Source: a virus
Lineage: Duplodnaviria > Caudoviricetes
Length of the DNA stretch: 64,000 bases
IMG/VR virus record: IMGVR_UViG_3300023714_000001
Reading direction: 5' to 3' (one strand)
The stretch's first letter is position 1; the number at the start of each line of letters is the position of its first letter. The notes beneath the pieces are model-generated. The model was not told the origin of the DNA. It worked only from the letters and a program-made list of their open reading frames with translations, and did no database searches. The position numbers and the translations under genes were made by a program. Positions 2,734-61,770 of this stretch are shown piece after piece.

Positions 2734-2811
2734 AATGTAATAACCTTTTTCTCTTTAGTAATGTGTGCCACGTAGAGCATAACAATTAGAGAGAAAGAGG
2801 TTATTATTTTG
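2732..2811 (+). promoter_or_regulatory. Long RNA hairpin sequestering the RBS and start of the RNA ligase gene
   Basis: 2738-2759 TAATAACCTTTTTCTCTTTAGT pairs with 2785-2806 ATTAGAGAGAAAGAGGTTATTA: 22 bp, and the three non-Watson-Crick positions are all G-U. The right arm contains the SD AAAGAGGT. Confidence 0.7.
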
Positions 2812-10300: not shown

Positions 10301-13300
10301 CAACAGTCGAGTATTATCAGCCAACACTTACCAGACGACTTAATAGTGACTACTACAACAAATCATTGTATAGTGGTTATTGGGATAAATGGGGGCATTC
10401 TCTGTTACCTACGCCAACAGCACCATTTTCCCCGCTCGTTTATTTAATGGACCCGTACTATCTCGAGGAAGAGCATAAGGAAGATCGCCCATATACGGTT
10501 TCCGGCACAATGTTTGATAAAGAAACTCCTTGGGGTATCGTCCTTAATCCTACAATCGGTGAACTTGTAAAACCGGTTGTTAAGATGAACCAGGATAGGC
10601 TGACGGATGACGGGCAGGATGTAAAAGCCATTATCTATGGTATAAACCAGCATATCCGTGATACTGCTCAGGGTGACCACGCATACGCCATGGTATTTGA
10701 CCGCGAACAGATTACCGCCGGCGAATATACTTCATACGCATCTCCCTCACTTGGCCAGTATAATATCCGTATTGGTAAGGATCGTGGGGAGCAGATGCGT
10801 CAGGAGCAGCTTGATGCTCTTGGCGGGCCGATGGAACCAGAGCGCCGCGAAACTCTTTATGAAGGCGGCGGTTCTGGTGATGGCTCTGGTGGCGGCGGAT
10901 TTGGATTCGGCGGTTCTGGCGGCGGAGGTTCTTTTGGCGGGCAATACCCGCTTGACCTTTTGGGACAGACAAACCGAAAAATATACGTAGCTGCCGCCCG
11001 CAATGAAAACAAAGGCGGCATGATCACCACCGACTATATTCGCCATAGTAAAGTAGACGAAATCCTCGGCAACGAAGATATAGGTGACCTGATTAACGCC
11101 GGAGCTGGTGGCGATCTTGTTCACGAGACAGCTCAGTCGCTAAGATTAATTGGCGGTATCTATGGTTATGGCGCAAACAGAGCGTTTGGATTCGGCGAGC
11201 GTGATGGAAAGCAAATTGCAGATGCCGGAGACATTGACTCTTTTAGTCGTTCATTCTGGGATGAATCCGTTGGTGGTATTGGCGGCGGCGTAGCAGAAAT
11301 TGGGCGTCGTTTTATCCCGGAATACAGGCGAAACATTCGCGTCAATCCGCTCTTAAATACGATGCCAGATTGGCTTCCAGAGAAGCTAAGATTCGGGGAC
11401 CCGTATACGCAATTGCCTAAAGGAGAGGCTCGCCTTCCCGGCAAAGGGTATGAGGCGTTAAATGAATTACACCCGGACTCCTATGGAATTTATGGCAGCT
11501 ACGACCGTTATAAGATTTTGGCTGACGTCGCTCCAAATTCAACAGAGTTTAAGGTCTGGAAAAAGATTGCGAACGCTACAGTTACCGACCCCGCTCTAAA
11601 AAAGGACATGGAAAAAATCCAAGAGCGCGTGAATGAACAAAACAAACAGCACGATTTTTACGACTATCGGATTCTCGGCAAAGACGTGGATTATCAGGAT
11701 GCTATTATCCAAGAGGTCAACAAGGATGGTTCATTCCGCATTCGTGGGTCGAATAGATTATTAACTCTTGCAGGCATTGAGTTTGATAAAACGACCGCGA
11801 TGAGTGGGGCTGGTAATCAGATTATGGCCAAGTATTTACATCCCGGCCAGAGTGTAACCATCGCAACAGATTCGAATGAGTATAACAGAGACAATCCTGA
11901 CGGCACAAATAATGGGGAAGGCACTGTAAACGCAGCGGTATTTGTTGATGGTGAAAGTGTCAGTGAGCTTTTACTTAATGAACACAAGGACGTAATCAAA
12001 AAGAAAAAAGACCATCTTAATGCTGCGGACGTATATGCCCTAACAAGTACATTTGACCGCGTGCTTGGCGGTGCTGCAGAGATTGTTGCTCATGCCGACC
12101 TGCCGTTAATCCATGATCGATGGTTGCGTGTAAGAAGCCCGCTTGAATCGTATAACGCAGAACAAGTATACGGCACGCCATACCAAACATGGTCAGATGT
12201 GTGGGGAACGTATATCCAACCGGCTATGGAGAGGGCAGTGTCGGATCATTGGGGTGTAATCCGTGGTGCCGCAGAATGGTTCGCTCTAAATAACTTGCAG
12301 GCCAGAGAAGGTATTGGTAAAACAAAGAAAATGCTGCTATCTGGAGCGGCTGCGCTAATGGATAGAGGGGCATTTATTGGCAGTAGTATTGCTACGTTCT
12401 TCCGTCCTGGTGATGGCGAATTATTCCAGAAAGGCGGTAAGATAGGCTTAGGATTGTCGCTCCTTGGCAATCTGTATACCAGTGCGCAGTCAAGTCCAAC
12501 AGAAGCAGCCGCGAGCTATGCCACGGTTGGCTGGATGGCTGCAGATGTGCTGGATACAGAAAAAGAAAAATTCACCAAAGCGCTTAGCGGTTCTATAGAG
12601 AAGTTTTTCCGAAATGAAGAATCGTGGAAGTTTAGAACAAAAGGTGCGTTTATCGGCGCGGCTGCCGGCGTGGCCATGTCTGGCTTATTTGGCCCATCGC
12701 TTGAAAGTGGAGAGCGTGCCCATTGGACTCCGGACAGGATAAAACAAAAGTGGGAACTTGAAGATTACTTTGACCGCCTGACATATATAAAATATACGGG
12801 GCTCTATAACCGCGCAGCAGAACTTGCCAAGAGCGAAGAAGGCACGGATGTAAAGAAGATTTTCGATGATTATGAAGAATGGAGCGATTGGCGCCGCGAA
12901 ATTATGCAGGACTCGGACGTAAACAACACCGAGTTCACCCATCTAGCCAAGAAGAGAATCCAGCGAGCATTAGATGGTCTTCATGATGAAATCTTCGGCA
13001 GTAATGATGAGAATAACCATCGTTTTGAATATAGCAATGGCTTTTCGATAAACGATCTGCCGGGTGTCCGTAATGGTGTATTCCATTCTGAAGAAGTATC
13101 CGAGGAAGAACGGCTTTATACACTGAATGCTTTGGTAACGATGGGAGTCCGATACAATAAACCGGGCACGTCGCGCACTCAGGAAGATCGTGACATGAGC
13201 CAGCTCAGAGAATTTGAGCGCGTGTATGGGACTAAAATTCCCGACTACTATCAGGTGCATCACATTGTAGAGTTCTCAGAAAACGGTGCGGATGACCCAT

Positions 13301-14037
13301 CTAATATGATTGCTCTTAACCCGGACGATCATCAGTATATCACCGAACAGCAAAAGAAAATCTCAGAAGGCGATTTTACTGCTGCTGAAATCGGCGCAAG
13401 AACTGCAATGCGTATCGGCGAATATGGACGGGCGGCACTGCTCTACAAGAAGGCCGCGGAATCCACTATGTATGGTTTGCGGGCGGATGCTAGGTGGACA
13501 GATGTTGTAAAAGCCTTGCCGAAATACGAGCGAGATTATTTCACTGAGTTCATGCGTGAAAACGATCCTGAAAAGCGCGAGGAAATTCTGCAGACCGTAT
13601 CGCCATTTTTAAGGCGAGCATTGAAGCAGGTCTGGAAGATGGACTACGAATCTGATAAAGGACCGGACAATGAAGAATATTTTCAGAGTCATAATCTGCC
13701 AAACTTCCAGTGGGAAGGGTGGGATCCGGATTCTGACTTGAACAAGGTAAAAGCAAAGACCATCAAAAACGAAGGCATGCTTTTCTCCGATTTTGGAATA
13801 TACGAATCTACGTATCGTGACCAAGAAGTTATCAATGCGCCAAATCTATCACCTAAAGGTGGAGACGATCCGATAACGGTACAGGCAAATCTGCAGGCAA
13901 CTTTGTCTGGTTTGGGGCTTATGGGTGTCGAAGTTTCTGTCGAGCCAAAGTCCACAAAGGGTATTACCTCGGTAATTAACGTCACGAAGGTAACATCGTA
14001 TAAGCTGGGAGAAACGGTTGATAACCTATTCTCCTGA
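7342..14037 (+). CDS. Giant virion protein at tape-measure position, with degenerate SNase-like OB domain and HNH motif (2231 aa)
   Basis: Follows the chaperones. Helical N-half, Gly-rich linker (10862-10940) and hydrophobic segments (12330-12695). HNH motif VHHIVEFSENGADDPSNMIALNPDDH at 13255-13332. Confidence 0.65.
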   Translation: MAEDKLYEEANEDLSDTLIDFGTDIAAAGVAAVSFYRAGGVRTLSKKLSDYSHSGLKRAVDDFRALDYDHINYRTLKKTYEQIRNGMRNFKAQPHDNRIRWEARPGTPIELIMEAAKLRESSPVIQENARWQREVVRRIQKTAYKNLSAALGAAKIKNRDTIKLAQAQMAKLVAHVASEARKGHVDFDTARLQKNFKVTGAGGDFYQKVIDTAKSQAEKFSLNAAKHKGRTIENQIADRLEAVETLERAAGGRYSGNTLRDKAFGDGLVTIRDTLSHADRFNDTDGTLFIGSDHSVKERSFLKALQELHERVKAKNDKEMLERFENIVIDPHLRKTADGEIYSLDPLYKARYKVLKSLAYTMPGKILKLADMMMSEATPAFYQFKKGTLNPVLAAFEEGNTTKRIMSDYFYMAGKVFRYDEESNKLLDESVKELDGGTLFSTRFAGMANLYKDINGLNAQRVRQDGSISKILDLNAAPGMNPWDYLAGYFSGERDKKYLPNVIKDIKSGNLFSTSDDIDDVYERLSSLNIFLNKSTRGLTLPMLSALENVARETAAQDGRDALEIISLLRLNNGEQILDGVKAMVGAHGGTDGAFLNNRLNRLVSKFARNESATKGSVELLEDISGAWTDDISAAGGLDFYGQLQRELSKEALMRMAENSRDEAGGLYNAIKGVIEKSSMSHADEEAAKRLAYTSILDNETMNAFTGFGKYQRSEYDVVDPITNQSLLESLIAKYTTVAGGKTTRAGEQDASRVIQDMVNDGHEWQMLHANGRNHESDIPEQYIESDYAILRKSSGPLEILKAINQSITDSSLDALKDEGMNFINQLKAGGHDAGNLSRMTMVPYFFLRRLGGDDLPPFLQFSNEALDSTWGLTKAIAKRIAPVAIGETYLEWGDDTVGAVTGVRPSAGFVNTLDYMDIGARTMLDMTGIGGFLESESYVNPIMQYWGGRDGYYDADEERDFIANGYEAVRRGRYWSFGSVNEFRGSTVEYYQPTLTRRLNSDYYNKSLYSGYWDKWGHSLLPTPTAPFSPLVYLMDPYYLEEEHKEDRPYTVSGTMFDKETPWGIVLNPTIGELVKPVVKMNQDRLTDDGQDVKAIIYGINQHIRDTAQGDHAYAMVFDREQITAGEYTSYASPSLGQYNIRIGKDRGEQMRQEQLDALGGPMEPERRETLYEGGGSGDGSGGGGFGFGGSGGGGSFGGQYPLDLLGQTNRKIYVAAARNENKGGMITTDYIRHSKVDEILGNEDIGDLINAGAGGDLVHETAQSLRLIGGIYGYGANRAFGFGERDGKQIADAGDIDSFSRSFWDESVGGIGGGVAEIGRRFIPEYRRNIRVNPLLNTMPDWLPEKLRFGDPYTQLPKGEARLPGKGYEALNELHPDSYGIYGSYDRYKILADVAPNSTEFKVWKKIANATVTDPALKKDMEKIQERVNEQNKQHDFYDYRILGKDVDYQDAIIQEVNKDGSFRIRGSNRLLTLAGIEFDKTTAMSGAGNQIMAKYLHPGQSVTIATDSNEYNRDNPDGTNNGEGTVNAAVFVDGESVSELLLNEHKDVIKKKKDHLNAADVYALTSTFDRVLGGAAEIVAHADLPLIHDRWLRVRSPLESYNAEQVYGTPYQTWSDVWGTYIQPAMERAVSDHWGVIRGAAEWFALNNLQAREGIGKTKKMLLSGAAALMDRGAFIGSSIATFFRPGDGELFQKGGKIGLGLSLLGNLYTSAQSSPTEAAASYATVGWMAADVLDTEKEKFTKALSGSIEKFFRNEESWKFRTKGAFIGAAAGVAMSGLFGPSLESGERAHWTPDRIKQKWELEDYFDRLTYIKYTGLYNRAAELAKSEEGTDVKKIFDDYEEWSDWRREIMQDSDVNNTEFTHLAKKRIQRALDGLHDEIFGSNDENNHRFEYSNGFSINDLPGVRNGVFHSEEVSEEERLYTLNALVTMGVRYNKPGTSRTQEDRDMSQLREFERVYGTKIPDYYQVHHIVEFSENGADDPSNMIALNPDDHQYITEQQKKISEGDFTAAEIGARTAMRIGEYGRAALLYKKAAESTMYGLRADARWTDVVKALPKYERDYFTEFMRENDPEKREEILQTVSPFLRRALKQVWKMDYESDKGPDNEEYFQSHNLPNFQWEGWDPDSDLNKVKAKTIKNEGMLFSDFGIYESTYRDQEVINAPNLSPKGGDDPITVQANLQATLSGLGLMGVEVSVEPKSTKGITSVINVTKVTSYKLGETVDNLFS

Positions 14038-14046
14038 GTAATTTTT

Positions 14047-14080
14047 GACGACTGTAATCTTGCAGTCGTCTTTTTGTTTT
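14047..14080 (+). terminator. Intrinsic terminator-like hairpin
   Basis: GACGACTGTA-ATCT-TGCAGTCGTC followed by TTTTTGTTTT. Confidence 0.7.
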
Positions 14081-14093
14081 AGGAGAATAATTA

Positions 14094-17000
14094 ATGGCAA
14101 ATAACATTTATTCCAACCGGGCGACATCCCGACTTGCAAATAGAGAAAGACAGAATCGGGCGGCAGAAGACCGTTTAATTAAAAGAAGCAGTCAACAATA
14201 TTTAGAAGAGCTTAGGCAGTACAATGAAGACAAAAAGGCTTCAAAAAGTGTGACTGACAATTCGTTGGTGAAGCCGGTATTTCAGCACCCAATAGACTTA
14301 GAGATAGAACTTGAGATCTTAAATAACCAAGCGCTGATTCCATCCATGTCTAGAATTGCTAATTTTGACTGGGCGGGCGCAAATGCAGTTTATGGGGCGC
14401 TCCCAAAGCGCTTTAATGAGCGAGGGGAAGTAAGTACTGAAGTAGCAAATATATATGAACAAAAATTCCTGCCCGTAGTGGGAGAGCTGTTAAATAGCGT
14501 ACAATCCCCTACACAGTTAAGCACGGTGCAATCTGGTGATGAGCTATTAAAACGCACAATCATTCAGGATGCCCAGCTTAACTATGCCTTCAATTACAAT
14601 GCCCTTGTAAAAACGAATATGCAAAAACAAAAGAAAGTTGTTGAGCATATCCAGAAAACCGGGAAATTTATTGAGTATGACCTCGAGGGTATTGGAAACG
14701 ATATAACTGAATTCTCCTTTATTGAATTTGACACCAAGGCCAAGACCGGCACGCCGGTAAAGAAATGGATGACCGGCCTTACTGGTGTTAATCCGGAAAC
14801 CGCAAAAGAACTTCAGTCATTAATTGACGATTATAGACAGTTCGGTTTCAAACATGGTGACCAGAAAAATGGTGTATCTGAAGCAGATCGTTACAAACTG
14901 GAAGCCATTGCTAAACGTGGGCATAAAAAGACGGTTGTAGAAAATAAGGATGGCATTAACATCCTTAAAAGTTATGCTGTTAACGAAGACGTTTTGATTC
15001 CGCAGGTCGAAGATTTAGAGCGCGGTCTGCAAGGGCTCATTGATGACTATAATGTCATCCACAGTGCAAAACCCAAAACATATAGTTTCGACGGGAGACA
15101 GTACCAACTCTATCGCGACGACTATATGATGCTACGCATGCTTTACGACGCAAAAAAACGCAATATAGCTCTGTCAGGTCTCAACGTTTTTGGTTACGAT
15201 AACGCCCAGATAAACCGCAAATTCAACCAGGCTACTGGTGACGCATATTTGCTATGGAAGCAGATAACCGGCACGGGCGACATGAACGACGCATTCCTCA
15301 TTATGGATAAAACAATGATCCATCGTGAGAAAAACGACCCCGCAAAAATTCTGGCAAATGTTAACGGCGCTCTCGAAGATATCGCGGCGAATCCGGGGAA
15401 TACATTAAATACATCCCGGGGGCAGCAGGCAAGATACGGTAATATGATTGACCCGGCAACCGGGAAAATCATAAATGGCCCCGACCGTTACCAGCAGATG
15501 ATGCATGAGCTGTTTAATGGCGTAATCTATGCGCAGCACGCAGCTTTCTCGGATACAGCTATTCAAGGCTTCACAACTATTGATATGCTGAAGGACAGCT
15601 CTTTTACGGCTACAGTAAAAGATGAGAACGGGAAGAATATAGCAAACCCTGATTATATATTCAGCGATAGCAAAATGGAACCCGAAAGACTCGCTAAGGC
15701 CGGGGATATCTTTTATGTCCAAAAGGGTGTTATGGGGAATACCGCTGCTGGCGGCATGAGCTTCGTTGTTGATGGATTATCTGGCGATATAAGATTCGAT
15801 GGAGTAAGATTCGATGCTCAGGGGAAACTCCTGACAAAAGAGAATCTGGTAGCGCCGGCGCTAAAGAGTAATACTTATGCCATGCTTGCTGGCGTAAAAG
15901 AGATATCTGTTGACAGCGCTATCGGCAGAGAATATGGAAAAATCAAAGGCACAGCCGGGGCGGAAAATCTCGTAGCCTTGATGTTTTATCAGTATGGCGA
16001 GGCATATAAAGGAGACGCCGAAGGAAAATTAAAGGACTTAAATGTCTGGGTAGGCACAAAAACCGAAGCGGAAGAATTTCTAGGTTCTAACCCATATGTA
16101 GGTTCTGTTGTCCCCAAAAGCACTCCAAAGACACTCGAAGATTGGCGCACCATATCTTCGACAAATAGGCATACTGATACAACAGGAGTATCTTCTTCTG
16201 TAAATGAAAAATTTGGCAAGAGGCATGAAGATGGCTCTATAGCAGGCTTAAATGAGGCTGTAAAAGAATCTAACATAACAAAGCAGCGGGATTCTGCAAG
16301 TAATTGGCTCCGCAGCCTTAGTTACAAAAAAGCGAAAGCTGCGCATGAGTACATAACAAAGCTGAATAATGATCTGAGCAAAGCTATGACTTCCCGCAAT
16401 ATAACTGGTGGGATTTCCGAATTTGCAATACAGCAATTAAGTGCGTTTGCTGGCAATAGAAAAGCTCTTCTTAGCGAGTACAGCATGTTTGAGCAAAAAG
16501 AAGGTGCTGAGGTCTTAACCCAGACTATTGCGAATGCTACTTATTCTGCTGGATATCTTGATAAGGTAAAAGACATACTGAACGAGTCCTTAAAGCTGAC
16601 GGAAAAGCTGGCCGGCCCAAATGCGGATAAAGCTGTCAAAGATCAGTACTTTACGCAAATTTATGAACATGCTTTGGCGGTATTAGCGGAAGAAACAGGG
16701 GCTTATACGCCGGCACAAGCATATGGCCAGGCAGCTTCCGGTCAGCTTAGAACCGGCAAACAGGCTCGCTCAGTTTTGCTTGACATCTCCAGTATTGCTC
16801 CAACAAAATTTAATAATAGTTCAGGCCTTAACAGCCAAACTGGGATGTTTTTTGAGATTGATCCTCACGAGACAGAACCGCACTGGGTAGCTAGGCTGGC
16901 GAAAATGCTCGGAACTGAAAATAAAGCCGTAGCCGTACGCAAGCTAGGCGCTCTGATTTCCAAGCAATATGGAGAAATAAGCGGTATCAAGAATCTCTCT

Positions 17001-20000
17001 CGTGATCTTGCTAATATGCCTGCGGAGCCATCGGCGCTGATGTTGAGAGTTAATCAGGCGTTAAGAGTTATACAGAAAAAACGCCCAGAGGTTCTGAAAG
17101 TACCAGAAACAAAATACCTGGATACAGTGAATGGGCCCGCATCTATTGACGTCTTTAATAGTCTTTCCGAAAAAGAGCAGAAACCTATTAAAAAGAAGAT
17201 GTATGATACCAGCGGCATCCAAAAAGTTGCCAAGGGCAGTGCAGATATTGAAGATCTTGTAAGGAAAATTACAGAATCTATTTTTGCGCCAACAAGCCAG
17301 TTCGATATGAATGGTAACAAAGTCACTGATGCTGCACGAAGTGAATTAATCGCGCATGGATATTCCTCATGGGAAGCAGAGGAGATGATTCGTGACCGTG
17401 ACAAGCGTATAGGGGCAACAAAGAGATATCTGCGTAACGCGTTAACACCGATTCTGAGTTCAAACAATCAGGTAACGTACAGGTTCGATTCGGACAGAAT
17501 GCGGCTTGAGCTCATTGACGCAGCAAGTGGCGGCAGCACGTTTGATATCTCCAATCTGCTGCCGATGGAACACTATGATTCCAAGACTGGCCGCTTTTAT
17601 ACGCAGTTTGGCAACTCTCAGATTGCCACATTAAAAACTCTTGGGCGAAGTGTTGATGAAAATGGTGTGGCCGGAGCTTTTGAATTACGCAGTCAGATTG
17701 ATGTTGCGGCAGACCATTTAGCGCAATTTGCAAGATACGCGAACAATGCAGGACGCACAGCAAGTGAGAATATCGGTACGCTGCAGTGGGTAATGAAAAA
17801 AGCAGTCGAGCTTATTCGTCCGGACAGTGTAACAAGGTATGATCACCAGGATAAGCGTTTCGGGTTAATGCTTGACTTTATGCCGCTCGTAAAAGAGTTT
17901 GGCTACTTTAAACGTCTTGGCGCGTTTGACGAACTAAACCTTAGCGAAGGCACGCTAAAAGCTTTGAACTCGATGGCCACACGGCTTGAAAAAGAGAACG
18001 GGGAAACAGAGTTCGGGAAAATAAAAGCCCTAAAAGATGTAAAGCCGGATGAACTCGAAGCCATTTATAAAGACTTCGATACCATTTTCGGTGCCTTAGC
18101 AGAAGATAGTAAGTTTTCACAAGCTGTATTTGGCAATCTGCCACAAAACAAAAAAGAATACGCACAATCCAGATTGGCTCATATCAACAGGCATGCCGTC
18201 AAAGATCCGAGCAGGGCGCTGGCTTCATTTACAAACACGGGGTATGACGCAACGGCTTTCGCTGGCAAAGATAATCGTTCCGTAACTGTTGCTACGGCCA
18301 GAGCTCGGACGATGGATGTAGACAGCTTCTTACGTGAAGATGAGAGCCGAAAAGAGCTTGTCCGTGGCGGCAGGATTCTCCTTACCGAAGCTGAAGAAGC
18401 CGACATAACGCATGGGCGCTACGGAACCATTCGTACGAGAGCACTGAATATCGATACTTCGGTTTACGAGTCTGTGATTGCCGCCCGCCTTGAAGACGAA
18501 GCAAGTGGTAAGGTTCAAAAGGTATTATCCAGCCTTAAAGATTCGGACGAAGTAGTCCGCTTCTTAAACGAGAACGGCTCAATAGCCAATCCGCGGCTTC
18601 TGCATTTATTCCCGAAGAATATTAACCAGAAACACCTGACGGATGGCCTTATTGATATAGATGAACTCCAAGGCACTGCAACTATAGAGGCAATAGAAAA
18701 CGAGAAGAAGGTTCGTCGTGCCACAGAAGAAGTGGTAGAGCTTGTCCGGGAAGCGGATAAAGTCGCCTTCAAATATGCGGCTGATGGTCGCGGCTGGGAA
18801 TATGTCCAGCGCGGCGATATTATTGCCTGGGATAAAAGCTACGCCGGTACTCCGTCAAAAGTACGAGCAGAGCGAGAAGGATATCTTTATAAGCGCTACT
18901 TCATGGGAGGACGTGAAGTAGATGAAGCCGAAATTAATGATGTACTCAATAAGCATTTTGACAAATTCAAAGAGTATGGCAGGGGTGCATCTTCTAAAAC
19001 CAATGCTGAAATCAGGCAAATAGCGGCAGAAGTTTTATCCGGAGAAGGGTACACGCTCCGCTACATTGTTAAGTCTGGAGACGCTCTGGGATATCAGAAG
19101 CTCATAGACAATAAAGAAAAAGCCGTAAACGACTTTTTACTGGCCGGTCTCGGTGAAGCTGATGAAGACATTAAAAAGCTTTTAGTCCCCAAAGAAGACG
19201 GCGTGGCGAAAAAAGTTCTTCGTCCGTCACCAGAGGCCCTGAAGGATATCGAGCATTTTAATGCTTATCTGGAAGCGAATGGGTACCGAGCAATTGACAA
19301 AAAATCTATTGCGGATTGGGGCGAATTTAAGAAAAAGGTTATCGCCGAACAGTCGGTTAAATTTGATGCGGTAACACAATCGTTACAAGACGCTGGCTTT
19401 GTAGATAAGGACACAATCAAAAACGGCGTGAATCGCCTCGGTATTGTCAGCACGGCAATGCTTGAACAAATGAAAGGTTCACACCGGGAAAATGACCGTA
19501 TCGAATCTCGTGTTGCCGATGCAATCGACGCATATGCTAGAGCAATAGAAGCTGGCGAAAAAGCTAAGGCTGAAGCAAAAGGAGTTGAGTATGCCGGTTC
19601 TTTTGAAGCGGCATACCAAAAAGCATCCGAAGAGATCCTTGGCCAATTGCAGCAGAAAGCTGTATTTAAGGACAGAGACGGCAATAATCTTCTCGCCGAT
19701 TTGGACTTGTCAGCTGAAAGAAAATATGACGGCATTGTCCTTAGCAATGATTTGTACACCGTCGATATTAACAAGCTGGATAAAATCGTTGGCCAATATG
19801 TAAAGGAAAACCGCGTTACGGCGGATGGTGTTAGCGAAAGTGTTCGAAAAGCAATAGCTTCTTCCATCGAGTACAACGCCGGTGTAGAGATGGATAAGAA
19901 GGAATCGGCGTTCAGGGAAGGCCGCCTATCGCAAGAAGCATACGATAAAGCAAAGGACGATTTCCAGGATCAAATAAAAAAGGCTGAAAGAGTTGCCGGC

Positions 20001-23000
20001 GGTGACAAGAACGAAGTCCTTGGCTATCAAAAAGTATCAGGACTATCCGTAGCCGCAGATGCTGATGAGGTAGGCCTCAATAACGGCAGCAACAGCAAAG
20101 GCGTAAAGATGACACGCCGTCTTGCCCAGAACCTTAACCAGGAGGTTGTGGATGAGAAGGGGCTCGATTCGGTTCGCTTGGCTTATGAAAAGATGTTGCA
20201 AAATACCTCAGGGGAAGAACAGCAGCAGGAGATTCTTGACCGCTTTAACAGACGCTATAAAGACTTTGGCGTATCCGCAAAATGGAATGCGGAAGATGGC
20301 AAGCTGACGGCCACTTACAGCGAGCCGGGAAAACTACATCGCATAAATGCAGACATAATCAAGAACATGGAAGAGGAAATAATCCGTGGTCAGGGATTTG
20401 GGGCTATATGGGGTGATGGTGTTAGTACTGGCGGGGTTCGCGGTGTTATCATAGACGGGCATGTTCATGCAGATGATATGCGCGAACTTAAACAGCGTGG
20501 CATCAGTGAGAAGTCTATCAATACGATGATTAAAGCTTATGAAGAAGCCCATGGAGCTAAAATCATTGGCATGAATAACTTCCTTAGCCAGTATTCTTAT
20601 CAGTCCAGTGCCGCGGCCAATGAATTCAACGCCCAGATGGGAAAAGCCGAAACAGAAGCTGAACGCGCTGAATTAATCGAGCGGTTTACCAAAAACAATC
20701 CTGATTTTAATGTAAGAGGAATCTGGGAACTAAACACAGATAAGCAGTTCTTCCAAAATGACCCCCTGAACCCGAATAATCGTAATATGATTATTGATAT
20801 GGGCGAAGGCGCAGTTCAGCGCTACGTTGCTGTGCCAATGGAAAACCTTTCCATGATGGATGCAGCAAATGGAGAAGGAGTAATATCTGGTTCGGCTGTC
20901 CGCGACAATATTAGCAGCCTCCACCACTATTTCGAAGAGCAAAGATATCGCGGCGCTACAGTAAGCGAGTTTTATAAGAACAAGTATAATGAAGGAATTG
21001 GTGATCTTCTAAAATCGATAGTAAATCTCTCGGTTCATAAAGAAGGCGCTGCAGCTCAGGTAACAAGCGATTATATTACGGGGTCTGGCACATTCAAGGC
21101 TGATATTATCCGTATGACCGCAGATAATAATTTTGAGACTATTGTTCGTAATGAAGCGGGTGAAGTTGTAAACGGCGAAAAGAAAGCCTTTGGTTTGATG
21201 AATACAGCCAAAGTAGATGGGATGAGTCTTGCTGACCATATCAGGGCCGGGCACAATATTAACGCTACATTCCTTGGTGAAGATTTCTTTGTAAATGCCT
21301 TGCAGGATGACAGTTTGTTTGGAATTTTGGGACAACTTGGTATAAAGGATAATAAAAAAATAGTCAATGACTTCCTCGATAATATAAACGATGGCGGCGG
21401 ATTGGGCTTGCAGATGAGACAGCCTGCCGAGTATAATACGTCAGTTGGTGGTTCATACTTATTCCTTGACAGAAGCCTTTCTCGTAACCAGGCAAGGATA
21501 ACACAAAGTACACTTGCCGGCCAGAACGGCGATAAGGACGGTGACTTGGTTTATGCACTGCTTGCCCGTGCAGATGCACAAATTAAAGTTACTGGTGTAA
21601 ACGAGGACGGAGAAGAAGTTGTATTAAAATCCTTCAATGCTCGCATTAACAACCTGCAGAAAAACCTGATAGAGAATAACCTGGATGCCGGGAATCTTGG
21701 TATTAAAGACCTGGAGAATTTCTCGGACGTAAAGATAAGCGTAGGTTTTTCCGGGAAAGACCCGTTCGAGGCATACGCCCGTTCAGCGGAAGTAATTGGT
21801 ACGTCTTCACTCACAGGCGTAAAAAGAGATGTGCTAACGCTTAACGACTTAGACAAAGCTATCAGGATCCGTAACGAAAAAGCAGAGACAATGGTTGCCG
21901 GCAGGGTTTGGAATTCAAACCAGTTAAGTGTGAGTGACCGCAATAAATTCAATGAAGCTTTTGAGCAGGAAATTCAGGGCAGCAAGGAATTTAACCAAGC
22001 TATTGAGGAGTACAACAAAGAGAATGGCAAATCAATAACTGCCGAAACTCTGACAGCAGATAGTTTAGCTACAAATTCTGATGGACAGGGCATTGCAGAC
22101 AGATACTTGAAAATTCGATATGGTAAAGACACTACGTCGGATGAGTATAATGCAGAGGCCGAAATTCTGGCCAACAGAGTAAATAAGCTGAATATGGATG
22201 ATGAAATTGCAGCACATATGGGCAAAGAAAGAGCTGGTATTTTTAACATGAATACCTACCGCATGACCCAGGTTGCACATATTATCCGCGATCACGGTTT
22301 AGACAATGGTTTAACTGATGCCGACCTAAATATAATCAACCAGTTTATGGTTCATGTTAAGGAAGCTGGTCAGGCTCCTAAAAACGCGACAGCGACAGCT
22401 TCCAGCCTGGAGGGGCTCGACACGGCGCTGAAAGACTTCTGGGGTATTGGCACGGGCCGGAATGGAGTAGTCTATCAAAAACAGGCAGACCCGACAAAGT
22501 TAAACGAACTCATTGATGAGGTTTACGCTGGAGAAATTAAGGAGTTTAAAAAACTTCCGGAACGAATGAAAGATCCGGAAACTGGCACTGTGAGTGCTGA
22601 CAGGATTAAGGAAGCTTTCAGCCATCTTATGTCTGAGGGCAATTCCCTTAATGGTGAACTTTACAAAGCTTTGCGTGTCGGCTATGCGATGGATATGTCA
22701 TACACCAATATTGGCACGCCAGATGAAGGCGATATGCTCTACCGCGCTAATCAGATTAAAGATAAATGGGTAGAAGACATTGGGTTTGAAGATGCCAAGA
22801 CGCAGCACGTCGATATCATGACAACTCCGTCAAGGATCGCGGGAACCTCTGAATTTAGCGACACACCGTATACCCAGGACGAAATGATTGGAGATCTTTC
22901 GGAAGGCGAGCTGACAATGGGAGATCAGGTGCGAGGCCTGTTAAGTTCGATAAAAAAGAACTTCAAGGGGCATGGTGCGATGGCTATGCTCGGTTTTGCC

Positions 23001-23336
23001 GGAGCTACAATGGCAATCGGTATGGCGGGCGGAGCACCTACCGCACCAACACCGACCCAAGGGCAGGCACAGGGGATACAGCAAGAAAATGCGATTTATG
23101 AAATCCCCAGTACGATGAGCATGCAGGGGGTTCAGAGTGGGGCTAACCAGTCATACATTATCAACGTAAATGCATCCACAGATAAGGGGCGCGACTTTGC
23201 AACAAACGTAATAAATCAGGCGTTTGCGAATATGCCTCAAAGTGCCGGTGGAAACACCATGACCATGAATATCAAAGACTCGTCAAGTAATATCGGCTAC
23301 AGTGATATTGCTTCGTATGTCTCAGACATGTTATAG
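14094..23336 (+). CDS. Putative single-polypeptide two-barrel (double-psi beta-barrel) RNA polymerase, probably virion-associated, with N-terminal DEDDh exonuclease-like domain (3080 aa)
   Basis: beta'-like R2442QP ... N2478GDKDGD (21417-21545). beta-like NENGSIANPRL, VQRGDII and K1669-x6-K1676. Exonuclease motifs D196LE198, N364xxxYD369 and H482xxxxD487. Confidence 0.7.
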   Translation: MANNIYSNRATSRLANRERQNRAAEDRLIKRSSQQYLEELRQYNEDKKASKSVTDNSLVKPVFQHPIDLEIELEILNNQALIPSMSRIANFDWAGANAVYGALPKRFNERGEVSTEVANIYEQKFLPVVGELLNSVQSPTQLSTVQSGDELLKRTIIQDAQLNYAFNYNALVKTNMQKQKKVVEHIQKTGKFIEYDLEGIGNDITEFSFIEFDTKAKTGTPVKKWMTGLTGVNPETAKELQSLIDDYRQFGFKHGDQKNGVSEADRYKLEAIAKRGHKKTVVENKDGINILKSYAVNEDVLIPQVEDLERGLQGLIDDYNVIHSAKPKTYSFDGRQYQLYRDDYMMLRMLYDAKKRNIALSGLNVFGYDNAQINRKFNQATGDAYLLWKQITGTGDMNDAFLIMDKTMIHREKNDPAKILANVNGALEDIAANPGNTLNTSRGQQARYGNMIDPATGKIINGPDRYQQMMHELFNGVIYAQHAAFSDTAIQGFTTIDMLKDSSFTATVKDENGKNIANPDYIFSDSKMEPERLAKAGDIFYVQKGVMGNTAAGGMSFVVDGLSGDIRFDGVRFDAQGKLLTKENLVAPALKSNTYAMLAGVKEISVDSAIGREYGKIKGTAGAENLVALMFYQYGEAYKGDAEGKLKDLNVWVGTKTEAEEFLGSNPYVGSVVPKSTPKTLEDWRTISSTNRHTDTTGVSSSVNEKFGKRHEDGSIAGLNEAVKESNITKQRDSASNWLRSLSYKKAKAAHEYITKLNNDLSKAMTSRNITGGISEFAIQQLSAFAGNRKALLSEYSMFEQKEGAEVLTQTIANATYSAGYLDKVKDILNESLKLTEKLAGPNADKAVKDQYFTQIYEHALAVLAEETGAYTPAQAYGQAASGQLRTGKQARSVLLDISSIAPTKFNNSSGLNSQTGMFFEIDPHETEPHWVARLAKMLGTENKAVAVRKLGALISKQYGEISGIKNLSRDLANMPAEPSALMLRVNQALRVIQKKRPEVLKVPETKYLDTVNGPASIDVFNSLSEKEQKPIKKKMYDTSGIQKVAKGSADIEDLVRKITESIFAPTSQFDMNGNKVTDAARSELIAHGYSSWEAEEMIRDRDKRIGATKRYLRNALTPILSSNNQVTYRFDSDRMRLELIDAASGGSTFDISNLLPMEHYDSKTGRFYTQFGNSQIATLKTLGRSVDENGVAGAFELRSQIDVAADHLAQFARYANNAGRTASENIGTLQWVMKKAVELIRPDSVTRYDHQDKRFGLMLDFMPLVKEFGYFKRLGAFDELNLSEGTLKALNSMATRLEKENGETEFGKIKALKDVKPDELEAIYKDFDTIFGALAEDSKFSQAVFGNLPQNKKEYAQSRLAHINRHAVKDPSRALASFTNTGYDATAFAGKDNRSVTVATARARTMDVDSFLREDESRKELVRGGRILLTEAEEADITHGRYGTIRTRALNIDTSVYESVIAARLEDEASGKVQKVLSSLKDSDEVVRFLNENGSIANPRLLHLFPKNINQKHLTDGLIDIDELQGTATIEAIENEKKVRRATEEVVELVREADKVAFKYAADGRGWEYVQRGDIIAWDKSYAGTPSKVRAEREGYLYKRYFMGGREVDEAEINDVLNKHFDKFKEYGRGASSKTNAEIRQIAAEVLSGEGYTLRYIVKSGDALGYQKLIDNKEKAVNDFLLAGLGEADEDIKKLLVPKEDGVAKKVLRPSPEALKDIEHFNAYLEANGYRAIDKKSIADWGEFKKKVIAEQSVKFDAVTQSLQDAGFVDKDTIKNGVNRLGIVSTAMLEQMKGSHRENDRIESRVADAIDAYARAIEAGEKAKAEAKGVEYAGSFEAAYQKASEEILGQLQQKAVFKDRDGNNLLADLDLSAERKYDGIVLSNDLYTVDINKLDKIVGQYVKENRVTADGVSESVRKAIASSIEYNAGVEMDKKESAFREGRLSQEAYDKAKDDFQDQIKKAERVAGGDKNEVLGYQKVSGLSVAADADEVGLNNGSNSKGVKMTRRLAQNLNQEVVDEKGLDSVRLAYEKMLQNTSGEEQQQEILDRFNRRYKDFGVSAKWNAEDGKLTATYSEPGKLHRINADIIKNMEEEIIRGQGFGAIWGDGVSTGGVRGVIIDGHVHADDMRELKQRGISEKSINTMIKAYEEAHGAKIIGMNNFLSQYSYQSSAAANEFNAQMGKAETEAERAELIERFTKNNPDFNVRGIWELNTDKQFFQNDPLNPNNRNMIIDMGEGAVQRYVAVPMENLSMMDAANGEGVISGSAVRDNISSLHHYFEEQRYRGATVSEFYKNKYNEGIGDLLKSIVNLSVHKEGAAAQVTSDYITGSGTFKADIIRMTADNNFETIVRNEAGEVVNGEKKAFGLMNTAKVDGMSLADHIRAGHNINATFLGEDFFVNALQDDSLFGILGQLGIKDNKKIVNDFLDNINDGGGLGLQMRQPAEYNTSVGGSYLFLDRSLSRNQARITQSTLAGQNGDKDGDLVYALLARADAQIKVTGVNEDGEEVVLKSFNARINNLQKNLIENNLDAGNLGIKDLENFSDVKISVGFSGKDPFEAYARSAEVIGTSSLTGVKRDVLTLNDLDKAIRIRNEKAETMVAGRVWNSNQLSVSDRNKFNEAFEQEIQGSKEFNQAIEEYNKENGKSITAETLTADSLATNSDGQGIADRYLKIRYGKDTTSDEYNAEAEILANRVNKLNMDDEIAAHMGKERAGIFNMNTYRMTQVAHIIRDHGLDNGLTDADLNIINQFMVHVKEAGQAPKNATATASSLEGLDTALKDFWGIGTGRNGVVYQKQADPTKLNELIDEVYAGEIKEFKKLPERMKDPETGTVSADRIKEAFSHLMSEGNSLNGELYKALRVGYAMDMSYTNIGTPDEGDMLYRANQIKDKWVEDIGFEDAKTQHVDIMTTPSRIAGTSEFSDTPYTQDEMIGDLSEGELTMGDQVRGLLSSIKKNFKGHGAMAMLGFAGATMAIGMAGGAPTAPTPTQGQAQGIQQENAIYEIPSTMSMQGVQSGANQSYIINVNASTDKGRDFATNVINQAFANMPQSAGGNTMTMNIKDSSSNIGYSDIASYVSDML

Positions 23337-23404: not shown

Positions 23405-26400
23405 TTGGTAACGGATCTCAAAAACCCCGCAATCGGTTTACCAGATATGGGGGATTATTATTACGATGCTCCAGATCAGGAAGCTTATTTTGGGGAAATG
23501 GACAAGAACCTCAACTCTGTACGTCGCGACAAAGCTAACTCTGTAGAGGCGTATAGATTTTATCAGGAGGACCCTCCGCAGCCTGGAGCAGATGAAAAGG
23601 GAAAAGTCTATGTATTTGACGTTGAACTTGGCGCTAAAGGCATTGGCGACGACAGTGAAGAAGTCGCCGGCATAAAAGTGGATGACGGCGATACGCTCGC
23701 AATCCCCATTGGCAGTATTAAAGTGCCTGATGAAAAATGCGAAAAGTATCTAAGCTACATAAAAGGATACGTAAGTACCCATAACAGCAGTGGAGATGCC
23801 ACGGCAATAAATATCCGTTTTGCAGGCCTTGATACGAAAGAATTGCCCCATTACCGCAAAATAAGCATGGACGAGCTTAACAAAAAAGAGCTGTCTGAGG
23901 TAAATCTCAGCGCCGCGCTTGGGGACGATAACTACATGGTGTCAAAATACAAGAGCTGGATGCAGACACGCAAGACGCTCGATAAGGCTTATGATGGTTA
24001 TAAAACCAAGGGCACGTTTTTTGATTATGCACAGCCCAGTGATAGCGTCGTGCAGGTTGTGAAAATGGATGACGACAAGTATCATCAGTACTTTTCTGAT
24101 GGCACGAATGGCTATGTACTCGTGGCAAATGCAACAAACAATTACAGTCCGGAAACGATAGCTGACGCTGGTCTTGGCCGTGATGTTGTAGTAAACGCCT
24201 TAAACGATGCAGAGGCTATGCGTATTGTTATTGACGCTACACAGATAACTCGTGACGGCGGCAGCATAAAGACAATGTTTGATACAGAATTGTACGGCAC
24301 TGGAATCGGAAATGAGGTGAGTCGTCAGCTCGACATGATGTTTGACTCTTACACAAAACATCAGCGCCCAGGCTTTAATACGTGGGGGCAGGATGCCTAT
24401 GGCCGTTGTATTAGTGCTGTCTATGTAAAAATCAAGGGCAAGTGGATTAATCTCAACAAACTTGTTATTGCCGATACGAACATGACCGAAATTAACAAGT
24501 ACAATAATGGCGACCAATCTTCCACGGTCATTGATCTCGATAGTTACGAGTATGATAGGAAGGCATACGCGGACAGCCTGTATGCTGATACGAGCAAATT
24601 CGATGACCGCGAACAGGTTCAGAAGCAGATTTTCGGACAGACTTGGAAAGCCCTGAAGGAATGGACTGTTACAATTGGCGATGTGACTCTTTTTGTGCCG
24701 CCGACCAGTATCCGCACACTCACCCAGACAAAGGCTGAAAGAATGCCGCTTATTCGTGCAAAAGGGTCCATGGCCAAAAGCTCAACCAAAAATCAGCGCA
24801 TTATCGAAATGGATCTGTATTTCAATGAAGATCGTGGCATAAATGGTTATGAGTATAAGACCAATACCCGTCCGGATAACAAGGGTAAGGACGTGACCTA
24901 CTGGATGAATGGTTTGCGGGCGCTGTATGCTCAGTTCCGCCTTGCGCCGTTCCTGCCGATAGAAAGCCACTATATTAATACTGTTCTCGGGGTGGATGCA
25001 GTTTCTCTTGTCAATTTTTCGTGTGAGACTGTGCCTAATTTTCCGAAACTGATTAAGGCCACAATCCAGTTGTCGGAATTTGAGTATCGCATTTATATGC
25101 CGGAGATTCCTTATGATGATGGCAGCGATGACGAGACGGAAGTCCGCAACTATTTTAGTAAGCAGATAAACTATCCGTTATTCCGTTACTATTATCAGCG
25201 TTTATTGAGGAACGGTGAAGAGCTGAAGGATGTTAAGTTCCTCGATAAAAAATACATCACGAGTACCTTCGGCAATAAGACGTGTCTGGTGCCAGCTAAA
25301 TTTGTTGACCCGTACATCAGGTTCTACGTGCCAAACAAAAATCAGCTGGAAAAACTAAAGAAGGCAAAACTTGAACGAATGGCGCGTCCCAATACTGTTC
25401 GCAGCATATCAAAGACCGAACTCAACTTTGCTGATGAAATGTCAAAGGTAAAGAATGAGATAGACTATATCAACACCTCGCAGTCTCCCATTGATAAAGT
25501 CAATGATTATCTAAAAGCCCCGGATATGGATGGGTATATACTTGCCGGAATTAATGGCAAGATAATGATTGGCAAGGCGGGTGACGCTAATACGTTTGTC
25601 CCGGATCCGGAGAAAACCAAAGCATTTGAAAGTCTGATGGGGGAAGCAGCCGCTTATTATGAAAACGGCCTCACTTCTCTAAGAAGAGAAGATGGTCAGC
25701 CGCTCTGTCAAAAACAGGGAACCTTAACATTTGGTCCGTCCAATTCTGACGGCTCCATTTACGGCGCGTATTTTTCAATAAACATTGAATATCCGGATAT
25801 ATCCGAAGACTCATTGAATAACCTTAGAACGCTATCTTCTGTTTCTGGCGTAGCGTCTGCAGACGAAACTTTTGTAAACAGAAATCTTCGCCTCAGAATG
25901 TCGGTAGATCTTGGTGAAAGCAACCTTACCTATGCCACCAATATTGTAAAAGGGGCGGCACTTGGTAAAGGGGAGTCCTTGTTCTATTTTGACACCAATG
26001 CGGATTCGAGCTTCCTGAACTTTTTAACAGAAGTAAATAATAAGCAAGGCGTTGGCGGCAACGAAGATGCTAATGAAGCAAAGGCAATGGTCGACTATGT
26101 AAGTGCGGCCACACTGGAATTTGAACCGTATAATGACGATGAAGATTTCCTGGTGGAAGCTATTCATGTTAGCACCAGTAATACGTTTTCCCAGATAACT
26201 CTGCAGGAAACGTCAGGGTATGCACCGCAGTATATGGGTGGTACAGATGTTTCCCTGCAAATAAGCATGTACACGCAAAGCGAAAAAGCCGCTTCGGCCA
26301 TAAATGCCCTGCCTCACGTATCGGCAGAGTTTGCACGCAATTACAGACTGGTTTTGGCGGCATGGCCATTAAAAATCGAAACAGAATTTACTAAGCTCTT

Positions 26401-29400
26401 TGGCATCACCGATGTAATGGTAGAAGCCTGTGAAGTGGATACAGTTCCGAATTATCCTGGCCTCTATCACATCACAATGAGCCTGGTATCTGTAGACAGG
26501 TCTTTGCGCAACAGAGAATCCCTAAAACAGAAAGATATGAAAAACTTCCATAATCTGTCTGTACAGGGTGTTGCTCGTGAGCGTCGATGGTCGTATACGC
26601 AAATGGCAGAGTTCCTTTCTGAAGCAGAGCTTTATCCGGATCTTGAACTTCCGCCTCTTAAAGAACTGGCGGAAAGCGGTTTTAACTTTATTCGTTACTC
26701 GAATACAAAGAGAGTCTACCCTGACCCGGACTTCTATTTTACATATAGTTATGTCCTGATGAGCCAGCTTATCCGTGAAGCTGTACTCAATGCACTGAAC
26801 TCTGATGCGTGCCAGACTGTGGTTAGAGACACGACCGGCAAAGAAATTAGTGGCAGCCTTGCAGAACGTATAGGCTCCTGGAATCGAAATTATGAACTCT
26901 CTAAGGGGTGGGATAAAGATCTTGGCTCCGTATTTCAGAATGACGATCTTATTGCCGCCCGCATTATCACAGACTGGGAAAATGTTGCGGACGATGAACG
27001 TGACGAAACGTGGACGATTGCACCAAACGTAAAGGTGGCTATGATGGAGAAGCGCATGCTTAACCGCATTAACGATTCTTCTAAGCAAAGCTATCAGGAG
27101 AAAAATGGTGCTGATATTCATTCGTCTACAACATACGATAATGTTGATGGTTTAAAGCAGCCGGCAACTGGTCAGACCACAGAAACTGATAAGGACGGCA
27201 ATGTAACTGAGCTGAAAGACGCTCCCGATAATCAGAATAGCACAGAGTCTAAAGACACAAACGATATTGGATTATCGAAAGAGAATGACGCAAAGAACCT
27301 TGAAAAATTAAAACAGCAACAGCAGGATATTAAAGATGAAAAAGCCACGGGGAAATATTCTTCTATCATGTACAAGAAGAACGAAGATATTTCCAACCGT
27401 ATAAATGGTGTCATTAAACATTATCAAAACATTTCCATTGATGAGATGGGTGACGGTATTGGAGATATTGTTCAGCAGCTGGTTGCCGCGTTTAATACTT
27501 GTCCTAAATACAACAATTCGCATATTGAAGGCGTCCCGGGGCAAGGCAAGAGTGAGATTCCAAACGGGATGTTTGGTAAAATCCCGGCCTTCCTAGACGC
27601 CGCCGCTGACGCGATTTGCAGCAACAATGGTGTTGACTACAGCGAAGAAAGTGCAGAGCATTTTAATCATACTGCTACCACTGTTGGCGGAGCAGCTGCG
27701 ACAGGTGCCCTTGCAGGAAGCGTGGTGGCTGGACCTGTAGGCACTGTTGTTGGGGGCGCAGCTGGAGCTGCAGTCGGTGGTGCTACTGCCTTTGTTGCTG
27801 CTGCAACAGGGGTCCATGATAATAATGGTAAATCCCCCTGGAAACACAGTACAAAATATCGCGGGCGGCTTAAAATTGACGGCATAGAGCAGATGTGGGC
27901 ATTTGATGATGATGACCCACAAAAAGACTATAAGGTTGAAATGATTGCAAAGAACGCTACAGAGTTTGGTTATTTCAACTTTAAGTTCTACACGCCTGAG
28001 GAGTTAGAGGATAGATTCGGCTATTATGGTCATATCGAGCAGGACAACACTGTAGAAAACAGTGAAACCGTAGTAGAAGCCCATCCCCGCATGGGAAGAT
28101 ATTTAGCCGACCCGTATTACCGGTATGCAGATGCAAAAGTTCAGGAAGAATATGTCAGAAGATGTCTGACGGATTATGGGTTCGCTAAAAAAGCCTTCCT
28201 CAGAATCTGTATTCTGTACATGCAGGTTTTAGTAAGCTACAATGTTTTTCCTTCGTTTTCCTATGATGTTATGCGCGATGCTCTTACATACGAAGAGAAT
28301 TTACAAAAGATTGTAACCGGTATGGAAGAACTGCGTAAGAAAAAGGCGGAAGAGGAGAGAACTAAATCCGAAACCCAGAAACAGTATGGCACTTCTAAAA
28401 AATATTCTCAAAAGAAGCAGCCTGGTGAAGTTAAGGCTGATGCTGCCAATGTAGTGTCGTATGTTGGTGCTGCTATTCCTGAAGGAACTACTGGCAACAC
28501 AAAAGACGCCAAGGAAGAAGATAAGAAAAAAAGTGCCGAGGGTGAAAATAAAGAGGGCGAAAACAAAGAAGGCGCAGAAGCGAAAAAAGCGAATGACAAT
28601 CCTGGCATCCCTGATATAGCTGCAGCAACAATGGTAACCAAAGCGAATGTTTCCAAAATTGCCAGCCAGATTAATAAAAACAAAGAAGCAATGGATAATG
28701 GCAAACTGTTCCTTATGTGCGCCATGGGCGTTGTGGATGGTGATAAGAATTTCTTGCAGCTTCTCCTTAACAGAGAGTATGATGCCTTAAATGCCATCGC
28801 CGGAGCAGCATGCAGTGGCAAAGCATCCCCAAACAAAAAAGATGCTACGTACGAAACGCGCCTCCGCAGCTTTATCCGGGCTTTAGCAGGAGAAAATGTT
28901 ATCGATAACTCACTGATCGGCTCGGGTGAGACTGAGGCACCTTCAGCTGTAGTAGCTCAGAATGACTCTCGTGCTAACTGTTCTGCAGCGTCAGAAGATC
29001 CGACCATGTATATGGTACATAGCTTCTATGATATGGTTGTACATGACTGCCGTGGCAGAATGCTGCGCGCCTTTCCAACATTCTATATGTTCTTCATTGA
29101 TGAAGGACGCAAGATTGGCAAATTTAGACTTCACGATAACTTCTACAACACTAACGCGATTTCAAGCATAACGATTTCGAAATCACGCAAGAATCCTACG
29201 GATGTAGCAGAAGTTGTAATGACGAACTTCTTCAATACTTTCACCACAGAAGATGAAGATCTCAATATGAACTATTCAGCAAACTTCACTGATGTGTTCA
29301 AGTCTTTATGGCTGCCAACCCTGCAGTCTTATGCAGTGGATGAAGAAGAACGCCGTACAAATGCTCCTAAAGCTGAAAGATTCCGGTTAAGACCTGGTGC

Positions 29401-37421: not shown

Positions 37422-37422
37422 A

Positions 37423-39166: not shown

Positions 39167-39178
39167 GGGGTGTTTTGC

Positions 39179-60164: not shown

Positions 60165-60172
60165 GTGTGGCA

Positions 60173-61729: not shown

Positions 61730-61770
61730 TGTAATGCCGCCCGCATATATTCAGTTGGGCGGCATTACAT
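61729..61770. repeat. 14-bp perfect inverted repeat
   Basis: ATGTAATGCCGCCC-N14-GGGCGGCATTACAT. Confidence 0.8.

Follow-up and report, generated by a model that had tools for sequence, protein, structure and literature searches.

A giant tail-module protein of a 211-kb gut phage probably carries a single-chain two-barrel RNA polymerase

We analyzed a 64,000-nucleotide stretch of DNA (hereafter the window; G000:C1:99911-163910) from the 211,158-bp IMG/VR phage record IMGVR_UViG_3300023714_000001; DNA near-identical to this record was found in animal gut and faeces metagenomes. Positions 14094-23336 (+) of the window hold an open reading frame (ORF) with an ATG start and no internal stop in the ORF list and translation, encoding P0001, a protein of 3080 amino acids (aa). 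We propose that P0001 is probably a giant virion tail protein with a strongly diverged, cell-type single-chain two-barrel RNA polymerase (RNAP), fused in the order β then β', that would be built into the particle, expelled, and transcribe the incoming DNA. P0001 very probably carries a real two-barrel polymerase core, and this core probably spans approximately aa 1440-2580 and extends to approximately aa 2870. That the protein is virion-borne and injected we favor only slightly. The gene and its two polymerase-like modules are as follows:

14094..23336, + strand: P0001, giant tail-module protein with a predicted polymerase core (ORF list, translation, homologs nearly all full-length at 2660-3437 aa, synteny at loci L003 and L004)
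18411..19493, + strand: β-like module, aa 1440-1800, the first predicted double-psi barrel with an inserted β-sandwich
20631..21833, + strand: β'-like module, aa 2180-2580, a clamp-proximal region and the predicted catalytic double-psi barrel

A sequence-only reading of this DNA had guessed four polymerase motifs in P0001. We located them where it had put them, at R2442 (MRQPAEY), D2480 (DKDGD), E1493 (NENGS), and the lysines K1669 and K1676, with a spacing from the arginine to the first aspartate of 38 aa in P0001 (R2442-D2480) against 35 in Escherichia coli β' (R425, D460). The motif-bearing elements are:

18570..18572, + strand: E1493 in the NENGS loop, candidate counterpart of β E813/D814, invariant
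19098..19121, + strand: K1669...E1675-K1676 β-hairpin, candidate active-site basic pair of the β-type barrel, invariant
21417..21443, + strand: R2442-Q-P-A-E-Y2447-N-T-S2450, putative counterpart of the β'/Rpb1 NRxPxLHxxS strand, with R, P, Y, and S invariant in all homologs
21531..21545, + strand: D2480-K-D2482-G2483-D2484, DxDGD, the predicted metal-binding catalytic loop

An exhaustive, profile-free homolog search with aa 1650-2849 as the query yielded 17 representatives, and a k-mer search based on the family alignment contributed just two more. Conservation was scored over 12-18 homologs that are 19-39% identical to P0001, with a single close relative at 72%. Mean column identity is 24-33%, and only approximately 79 of the 3080 columns are invariant. 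Eight invariant residues lie within 43 aa (R2442, P2444, Y2447, S2450, D2480, D2482, G2483, and D2484); K1669, E1675, K1676, E1493, K2316, G2318, and K2335 are also invariant, as are D196, E198, D369, H482, and D487 at the N-terminus. All four motif guesses thus fell on family-invariant residues, and the invariance of the DxDGD and of both lysines, a check that the reading had proposed, was borne out in these diverged homologs. D-x-D-G-D is kept in every homolog long enough to span the site, while its second residue is free to vary (K, T, Q, M, F, V, or A), as one would expect if the loop binds metal.

The DxDGD alone is weak evidence and not significant. Composition predicts 0.08 copies in a protein of this kind, and the pentapeptide occurs four times in the genome's ORFs of at least 100 aa. 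These four copies, and the lack of a match in the profile libraries, would suit a chance motif in an unrelated giant protein. We find that explanation scarcely credible, since the motifs are invariant and the fold evidence described below is independent of them. The P0001 motifs stand beyond chance because they are conserved across diverged homologs, not because of the pentapeptide itself.

We used AlphaFold2 to model aa 1450-2649 (1200 aa) from an 18-sequence alignment. The model has a mean predicted local distance difference test score (pLDDT) of 77 and a predicted template-modeling score (pTM) of 0.66. Searching the PDB with Foldseek returned 201 matches at E≤1e-3 (best E 7e-6, probability 1.0). 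The first 50 of the 201 are all bacterial-type β' chains, including cyanobacterial ones, and RNAP large subunits from every domain of life are present among the matches listed. P74-26 gp62 and QDE-1, both single-chain polymerases, can each be superposed on the two P0001 barrels at once. Fold matches in BFVD include viral RNAP subunits and gp66 from phi14:2, a crAss-like phage, and the best one is named 'Minor tail protein' (E 4e-8). The model has two features of the two-barrel superfamily: a predicted β'-type barrel with a conserved DxDxD metal-binding loop and, facing it, a second predicted barrel of β type that would supply two basic residues. The check that the sequence-only reading had suggested, AlphaFold with Foldseek on the core, thus returned a predicted two-barrel fold with an RNAP-like juxtaposition of the barrels, and its central claim, a hidden single-chain two-barrel RNAP, gains computational support from the joint superposition on P74-26 gp62 and QDE-1 and from motif invariance.

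A double-psi barrel is not confined to polymerases. Lytic transglycosylases in tail proteins also use one with conserved aspartates, and the hub protein encoded next to P0001 has lysin domains, so that the barrel might be a cell-wall-degrading domain of the MltA, RlpA, or '3D' type and no polymerase. We consider this highly unlikely. No lytic transglycosylase is among the matches listed, whereas RNAP large subunits are, and the RxP...DxDGD stretch together with a second barrel bearing paired lysines is characteristic of polymerases (PMC7824862).

The presence of a β-type barrel in P0001 is moderately supported by modeling. K1669 and K1676 lie on neighboring hairpin strands, which span residues 218-223 and 226-232 in the numbering of the 1200-aa model. 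We also modeled aa 1440-1840 separately, reaching a pLDDT of 79 and a pTM of 0.74; this second model gave no Foldseek match at E≤1e-3, and among its first 50 weak rows approximately 40 were β/Rpb2 chains, the best being 6p19_C (E 0.01). Judged from order and spacing only, the E1493 loop may be equivalent to the β NFEDS loop, with 176 residues from E1493 to K1669 compared with 252 from E813 to K1065 in E. coli β. The E. coli subunit has extra inserted sequence between these two residues. In P0001, the following insertion sits between the E1493 loop and the lysine hairpin:

18732..18905, + strand: six-strand β insertion (EYVQRGDII...), aa 1547-1604, candidate flap-like sandwich-barrel hybrid

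In the ESM atlas, the shapes that come closest to it are barrel-sandwich hybrids, with a template-modeling score of only ~0.2, and we treat the 'flap' as a lead only.

The argument for packaging comes from the position of the gene. P0001 is flanked on the same strand by two other giant genes:

7342..14037, + strand: 2231-aa gene upstream, homolog of Bacillus phage 0305phi8-36 gp145 (BLASTP 2e-48; EF583821 annotation), with an HNH motif at aa 1968-1999 (PF01844, E 1.1e-5)
23405..32161, + strand: 2918-aa gene downstream, baseplate hub with cell-wall-degrading domains, homolog of gp147 (phrog_20474, E 1.8e-177)

The order in the window is tail chaperone-like genes, the gp145 homolog, P0001, the hub, and baseplate genes, placing P0001 within a structural gene module, as is typical of virion-packaged, injected phage RNAPs (N4 vRNAP, phiKZ/AR9 vRNAP, crAss gp66, and P23-45 gp96). 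Bacillus phage 0305phi8-36 has the order gp145, gp146, gp147, and all three proteins were found in its virions by mass spectrometry (EF583821 annotation); for gp146, the assignment as tape measure came from tail length (PMC2147016). Because P0001 is flanked by gp145 and hub homologs just as gp146 is, we place it in the tape-measure slot. The sequence-only reading had put P0001 between tape-measure and hub genes, and this needs correction: P0001 occupies the gp146 slot itself, and the upstream 2231-aa ORF is the gp145 homolog. The synteny of three giant genes also surrounds the distant homologs P0004 and P0019 (loci L003 and L004). With tblastn, the 2918-aa hub matches hubs of 0305phi8-36, Moorella MTATph1, Bacillus WH1, Edson, KLEB27-3, and Acinetobacter ME3. 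As separate observations, 0305phi8-36 gp145 aligns on either side of the HNH region of the 2231-aa protein, and in Moorella phage MTATph1 (OR602862, L007) the slot gene at 8079-15435 appears to be split by a transposase (CDS0027, transposase CDS0028, CDS0029-0031). The identical 3080-aa protein is also encoded on a 326,679-bp contig; the present 211,158-bp record is 90% complete according to CheckV, and either the contig or the record may be incomplete or a concatemer.

The same slot could be taken to mean that P0001 is mainly a structural tape-measure or tail-lumen protein whose barrel region is a relic or non-catalytic. It sits where gp146 sits, its C-terminal hydrophobic segment resembles those of tape-measure proteins, and its best-matching BFVD homolog bears a minor tail protein name. 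However, if the region were a relic, the catalytic residues of the two barrels would not all have stayed invariant at 19-39% identity, and the 1200 modeled residues are compact and globular (pTM 0.66) with no extended helical ruler. P0001 stands in the position of the presumed 0305phi8-36 ruler, yet its modeled part is globular, and we regard a mainly structural role as quite improbable.

A real two-barrel polymerase need not be an injected transcriptase. P0001 might be made after infection and stay out of the particle, or it might act in another nucleic-acid reaction, where it could prime, copy RNA templates like QDE-1, make DNA like PolD, or pull the genome into the cell. In keeping with this, its core superposes on QDE-1, an enzyme with RNA- and DNA-templated activities (PMC9508822), the fused DEDDh-like region described below would suit a repair or processing role, and a second candidate polymerase in the genome could carry out transcription. 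On the other hand, P0001 lies mid tail operon between homologs of two virion proteins verified by mass spectrometry, and its best fold matches are DNA-dependent RNAPs; PolD is not among the matches listed, an absence that does not amount to exclusion. We judge a polymerase with such a different role to be rather unlikely.

Several results weigh against a packaged and injected polymerase. Scans of every family member with Pfam, PHROGs, and NCBIfam gave no match, and neither phmmer nor the family profile (hmmsearch) retrieved any PDB chain at E up to 10. Alignment of the family profile with single E. coli sequences by hhalign came back empty (probability 0.3% for β' and 0.1% for β). The 1200-aa model ends before the block at aa 2700-2870 that is a candidate for the bridge helix and trigger loop. 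Neither 0305phi8-36 gp146 nor the slot genes of Moorella MTATph1 contain a DxDxD, which indicates that the slot is not always home to a polymerase. Finally, a folded 340-kDa protein would have to pass through, or sit in, the tail tube.

Other sequence comparisons were likewise negative. BLASTP of P0001 against gp146 showed no similarity, and tblastn of aa 81-3080 and of aa 2200-2700 against 50,697 phage records gave no match. The hhalign probability of the family profile against E. coli DnaQ was below 0.1%. Single-sequence templates are weak, so the hhalign results leave homology possible. Smith-Waterman alignment of the barrel region with residues 310-505 of E. coli β' scored z 0.9; only the ten-residue catalytic loop aligned with β' (z 3.1). 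No Pfam RNAP domain reached E=1 in P0001, where PF05183 was also without a match, and the β and β' models PF00562 and PF00623 found nothing anywhere in the 211-kb genome. A genome search with PF00940 (T7-type) also found nothing, as did its controls, which makes it uninformative.

The proposed transcriptase would work as follows. In the β'-type barrel, a Mg2+-binding triad (D2480/D2482/D2484) would be held behind the R2442-x-P strand, and the β-type barrel would offer K1669 and K1676 across the cleft, as in cellular RNAP, QDE-1, crAss gp66, and the P23-45 enzymes. As in all two-barrel RNAPs (PMC7824862, PMC10770324), the lysine pair would serve to stabilize the transition state. P0001 would be built into the tail at the tape-measure slot, probably through its C-terminal hydrophobic segment and the 100-aa end domain, and be expelled through the contractile tail at infection. 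It would then transcribe the incoming DNA from phage-specific signals, with no need for the host polymerase. We infer that P0001 is catalytic, uses DNA as its template, is packaged and ejected, and is specific for early genes; packaging and ejection are read from gene position only.

Outside the two barrel modules, P0001 contains five further regions:

14661..15563, + strand: DEDDh-exonuclease-like region, aa 190-490 (D196-x-E198; N364...D369; H482-x4-D487), recognized by motifs only
19494..20630, + strand: linker or insertion, aa 1801-2179, poorly conserved and largely helical, with a long helical hairpin at approximately aa 1906-1974 (conservation profile, model)
22191..22703, + strand: conserved block, aa 2700-2870 (A2714, G2715, D2744, Q2760, K2763, K2816, E2817, G2863), recognized by conservation only
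22974..23036, + strand: Gly/Ala-rich hydrophobic segment, aa 2961-2981, nearly invariant, with the highest hydropathy of P0001
23037..23336, + strand: end domain, aa 2982-3080, candidate virion-attachment or assembly module (conservation profile)

The N-terminal DEDDh exonuclease is a candidate at the motif level and a lead only. In an hhalign comparison with five E. coli DEDDh enzymes, the three motifs were collinear without statistical support (probability 0.2%, E 0.3); the region has no Pfam or NCBIfam match, and an ESM-atlas feature search with aa 150-620 gave no usable match. In the linker, 80% of the conservation profile at aa 1901-1950 consists of gaps, the helices fall at residues 466-519 of the 1200-aa model, and the helical hairpin gives only generic matches. 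The block at aa 2700-2870 may be the bridge-helix and trigger-loop region, as suggested by its conserved residues. The hydrophobic segment that the sequence-only reading had noted near the C-terminus is real, with the Kyte-Doolittle maximum of the whole protein (1.41) at aa 2961-2981, and similar segments lie approximately 100-130 aa from the C-terminus in 0305phi8-36 gp146, ME3 gp36, and WH1 gp095. Conservation in P0001 peaks by a wide margin in the final 130 residues, which start with this segment (58-68% mean identity to distant homologs); these residues are likely an assembly or attachment module. The similarity between the C-termini of P0001 and gp146 was not significant (z 2.2).

Outside the window, the genome encodes a second candidate two-barrel polymerase, nv1, a 1116-aa ORF at genome positions 59923-63273 (-) with KYPSVG...GSDRDGD. 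Its region, genome 57960-63273 (-) (L005:961-6274), includes next to it a 686-aa ORF with a helix-hairpin-helix (PF12836, E 9e-9). PHROGs and Pfam gave no polymerase match to nv1, tblastn against phage records retrieved nothing, and nv1 showed no resemblance to the P0001 family. The genome also carries seven exact copies of AAACAAGACAA on its + strand, at 13602, 49253, 50939, 52812, 53188, 53846, and 54498, and 1-4 nucleotides after each copy comes a 6-bp GC-rich stem whose triloop is GAA or GGA. Six of the seven copies lie opposite minus-strand, early-looking genes at 49-55 kb, the remaining one being that at 13602, and the - strand has a hairpin-less box at 9284. In the minus-strand reading, each element is a hairpin followed by U-rich TTGTCTTGTTT, which makes conserved terminators as plausible as N4-like template-strand promoters. 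Taken together, the second polymerase and the AAACAAGACAA elements would be compatible with a two-polymerase program like that of P23-45.

The window also holds an RNA ligase gene just upstream of the tail module (2809-3957, +; phrog_968, E 8e-57) and, inside the structural region, a run of genes related to nicotinamide adenine dinucleotide (NAD) at 36092-39949 (+), comprising a NUDIX hydrolase (phrog_1198), a nicotinamide/nicotinate phosphoribosyltransferase-like gene (phrog_448), and an NAD synthetase (phrog_11189). A tail-fibre gene with collagen-like repeats at 51999-54782 (+) matches 59 PHROG tail-fibre families and lies where GC content (0.50) and GC skew (0.23) reach their highest values in the window.

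A precedent for P0001 is gp96 of Thermus phage P23-45, a tape-measure-fused virion RNAP (Chaban et al. 2024, PMC10770324). Both are giant proteins at the tape-measure position with a single-chain two-barrel RNAP and a DxDGD loop (DFDGD in gp96); both have membrane-type or hydrophobic segments, and both are invisible to sequence searches. Each phage also has a second, separate two-barrel polymerase, which in the present phage is only a candidate. The two systems differ in the tail, which is non-contractile and 800 nm long in P23-45, whereas the 211-kb gut phage is contractile-tailed. They differ as well in the placement of the polymerase, which is N-terminal in gp96 (aa 327-1124) and followed by 3800 aa of tape, but central and C-terminal in P0001 (approximately aa 1440-2580 or more). 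P0001 differs from gp96 further in having a predicted β-sandwich insertion, a region resembling the N-terminal part of β', and a DEDDh-like N-terminus; we detected no metallopeptidase in it. Homology to gp96 was not apparent in sequence: phmmer and the family profile gave no PDB match in a library presumed, but not checked, to hold the gp96 structures (PMC10770324). P74-26 gp62 and P23-45 gp64 (PDB 8F5M) are, by comparison, free-standing enzymes of 592 modeled residues that are not in virions and have no detectable sequence similarity to P0001.

Cellular RNAP divides β and β' (Rpb2 and Rpb1) between two chains, which in P0001 would be one polypeptide, and most lobes, the α/ω platform, and sigma-binding elements are not evident in P0001. 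The crAss-like phi14:2 gp66 is likewise a virion-packaged, giant single-chain two-barrel RNAP missed by annotation pipelines; crAss-like proteins carry DFDxD compared with DxDGD in P0001 (10.1101/2020.03.07.982082). Its fold match to P0001 was marginal (BFVD E 0.069). Phage phi14:2 is short-tailed. The YonO/QDE-1 (RdRP-like) clade lacks the sandwich-barrel insertion in its β-type barrel (Iyer et al., PMC7824862), whereas P0001 appears to have an insertion of this type, though weakly supported. Instead of the compact β-type barrel and PF05183 signature of that clade, P0001 showed the six-strand insertion and no PF05183. With its β' N-terminal region and β-barrel insertion, the core of P0001 seems to resemble the cellular and jumbo-phage type more than the YonO/QDE-1 type.

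Proteins in the same slot of isolated phages share some of these features. WH1 gp095 (Bacillus phage vB_BceM_WH1, 2515 aa, L014:3022-10569) has RYP...DHDGD, collinear ExoI/ExoII motifs, and a C-terminal hydrophobic segment. It matches the P0001 family hidden Markov model weakly over the barrel (independent E-value 1.1e-4) and PF00623 below threshold (E 0.09), exactly on the RYP...DHDGD stretch; its annotation is 'virion structural protein', on a basis that is not stated. ME3 gp36 (Acinetobacter phage vB_AbaM_ME3, 1603 aa, L008:9459-14270) has REP...DHDQD, a C-terminal hydrophobic segment, and a BFVD fold match (E 1.6e-4). Both are very distant from P0001 and of different lengths. The 0305phi8-36 gp146, a 'hypothetical tape measure protein' detected in the virion, is similar in size to P0001 and also has the hydrophobic segment, but lacks the DxDxD. 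We found no paper describing the P0001 family and none calling WH1 gp095 or ME3 gp36 polymerases. Iyer et al. (PMC7824862) list for 0305phi8-36 only a YonO-like enzyme (ABS83659.1), distinct from gp146 (ABS83704.1), and list no polymerase for the remaining jumbo phages, ME3 being among those analyzed.

A broader reading, which we hold to be possible but short of probable, is that P0001, WH1 gp095, and ME3 gp36 belong to a broad, undescribed superfamily of polymerases that 0305phi8-36-like jumbo phages with contractile tails carry in the tape-measure slot. Its members would fuse a proofreading-type exonuclease to a β-flap-β'-clamp RNAP, link the multisubunit cellular-type RNAPs in evolution to the minimal single-chain ones, and travel through the contractile tail tube, with the box-plus-hairpin signals serving as promoters or terminators. 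If P0001 is indeed an injected polymerase, an entire lineage of large phages from gut and soil would begin infection by bringing in a cell-type RNAP that annotation pipelines miss, which would explain a possible independence from the host polymerase. The idea of a polymerase in the tape-measure slot would no longer be limited to one Thermus siphovirus lineage but take in jumbo phages with contractile tails. P0001 would then be a natural β-β' fusion, with parts like the flap and the clamp, in which to study the simplification or build-up of RNAP, and a rifampicin-insensitive single-chain RNAP would be a useful tool. Overall, the comparisons suggest that P0001 may work like P23-45 gp96 and crAss gp66 without belonging by sequence to either family, and its isolated, culturable relatives in WH1 and ME3 make the idea directly testable.

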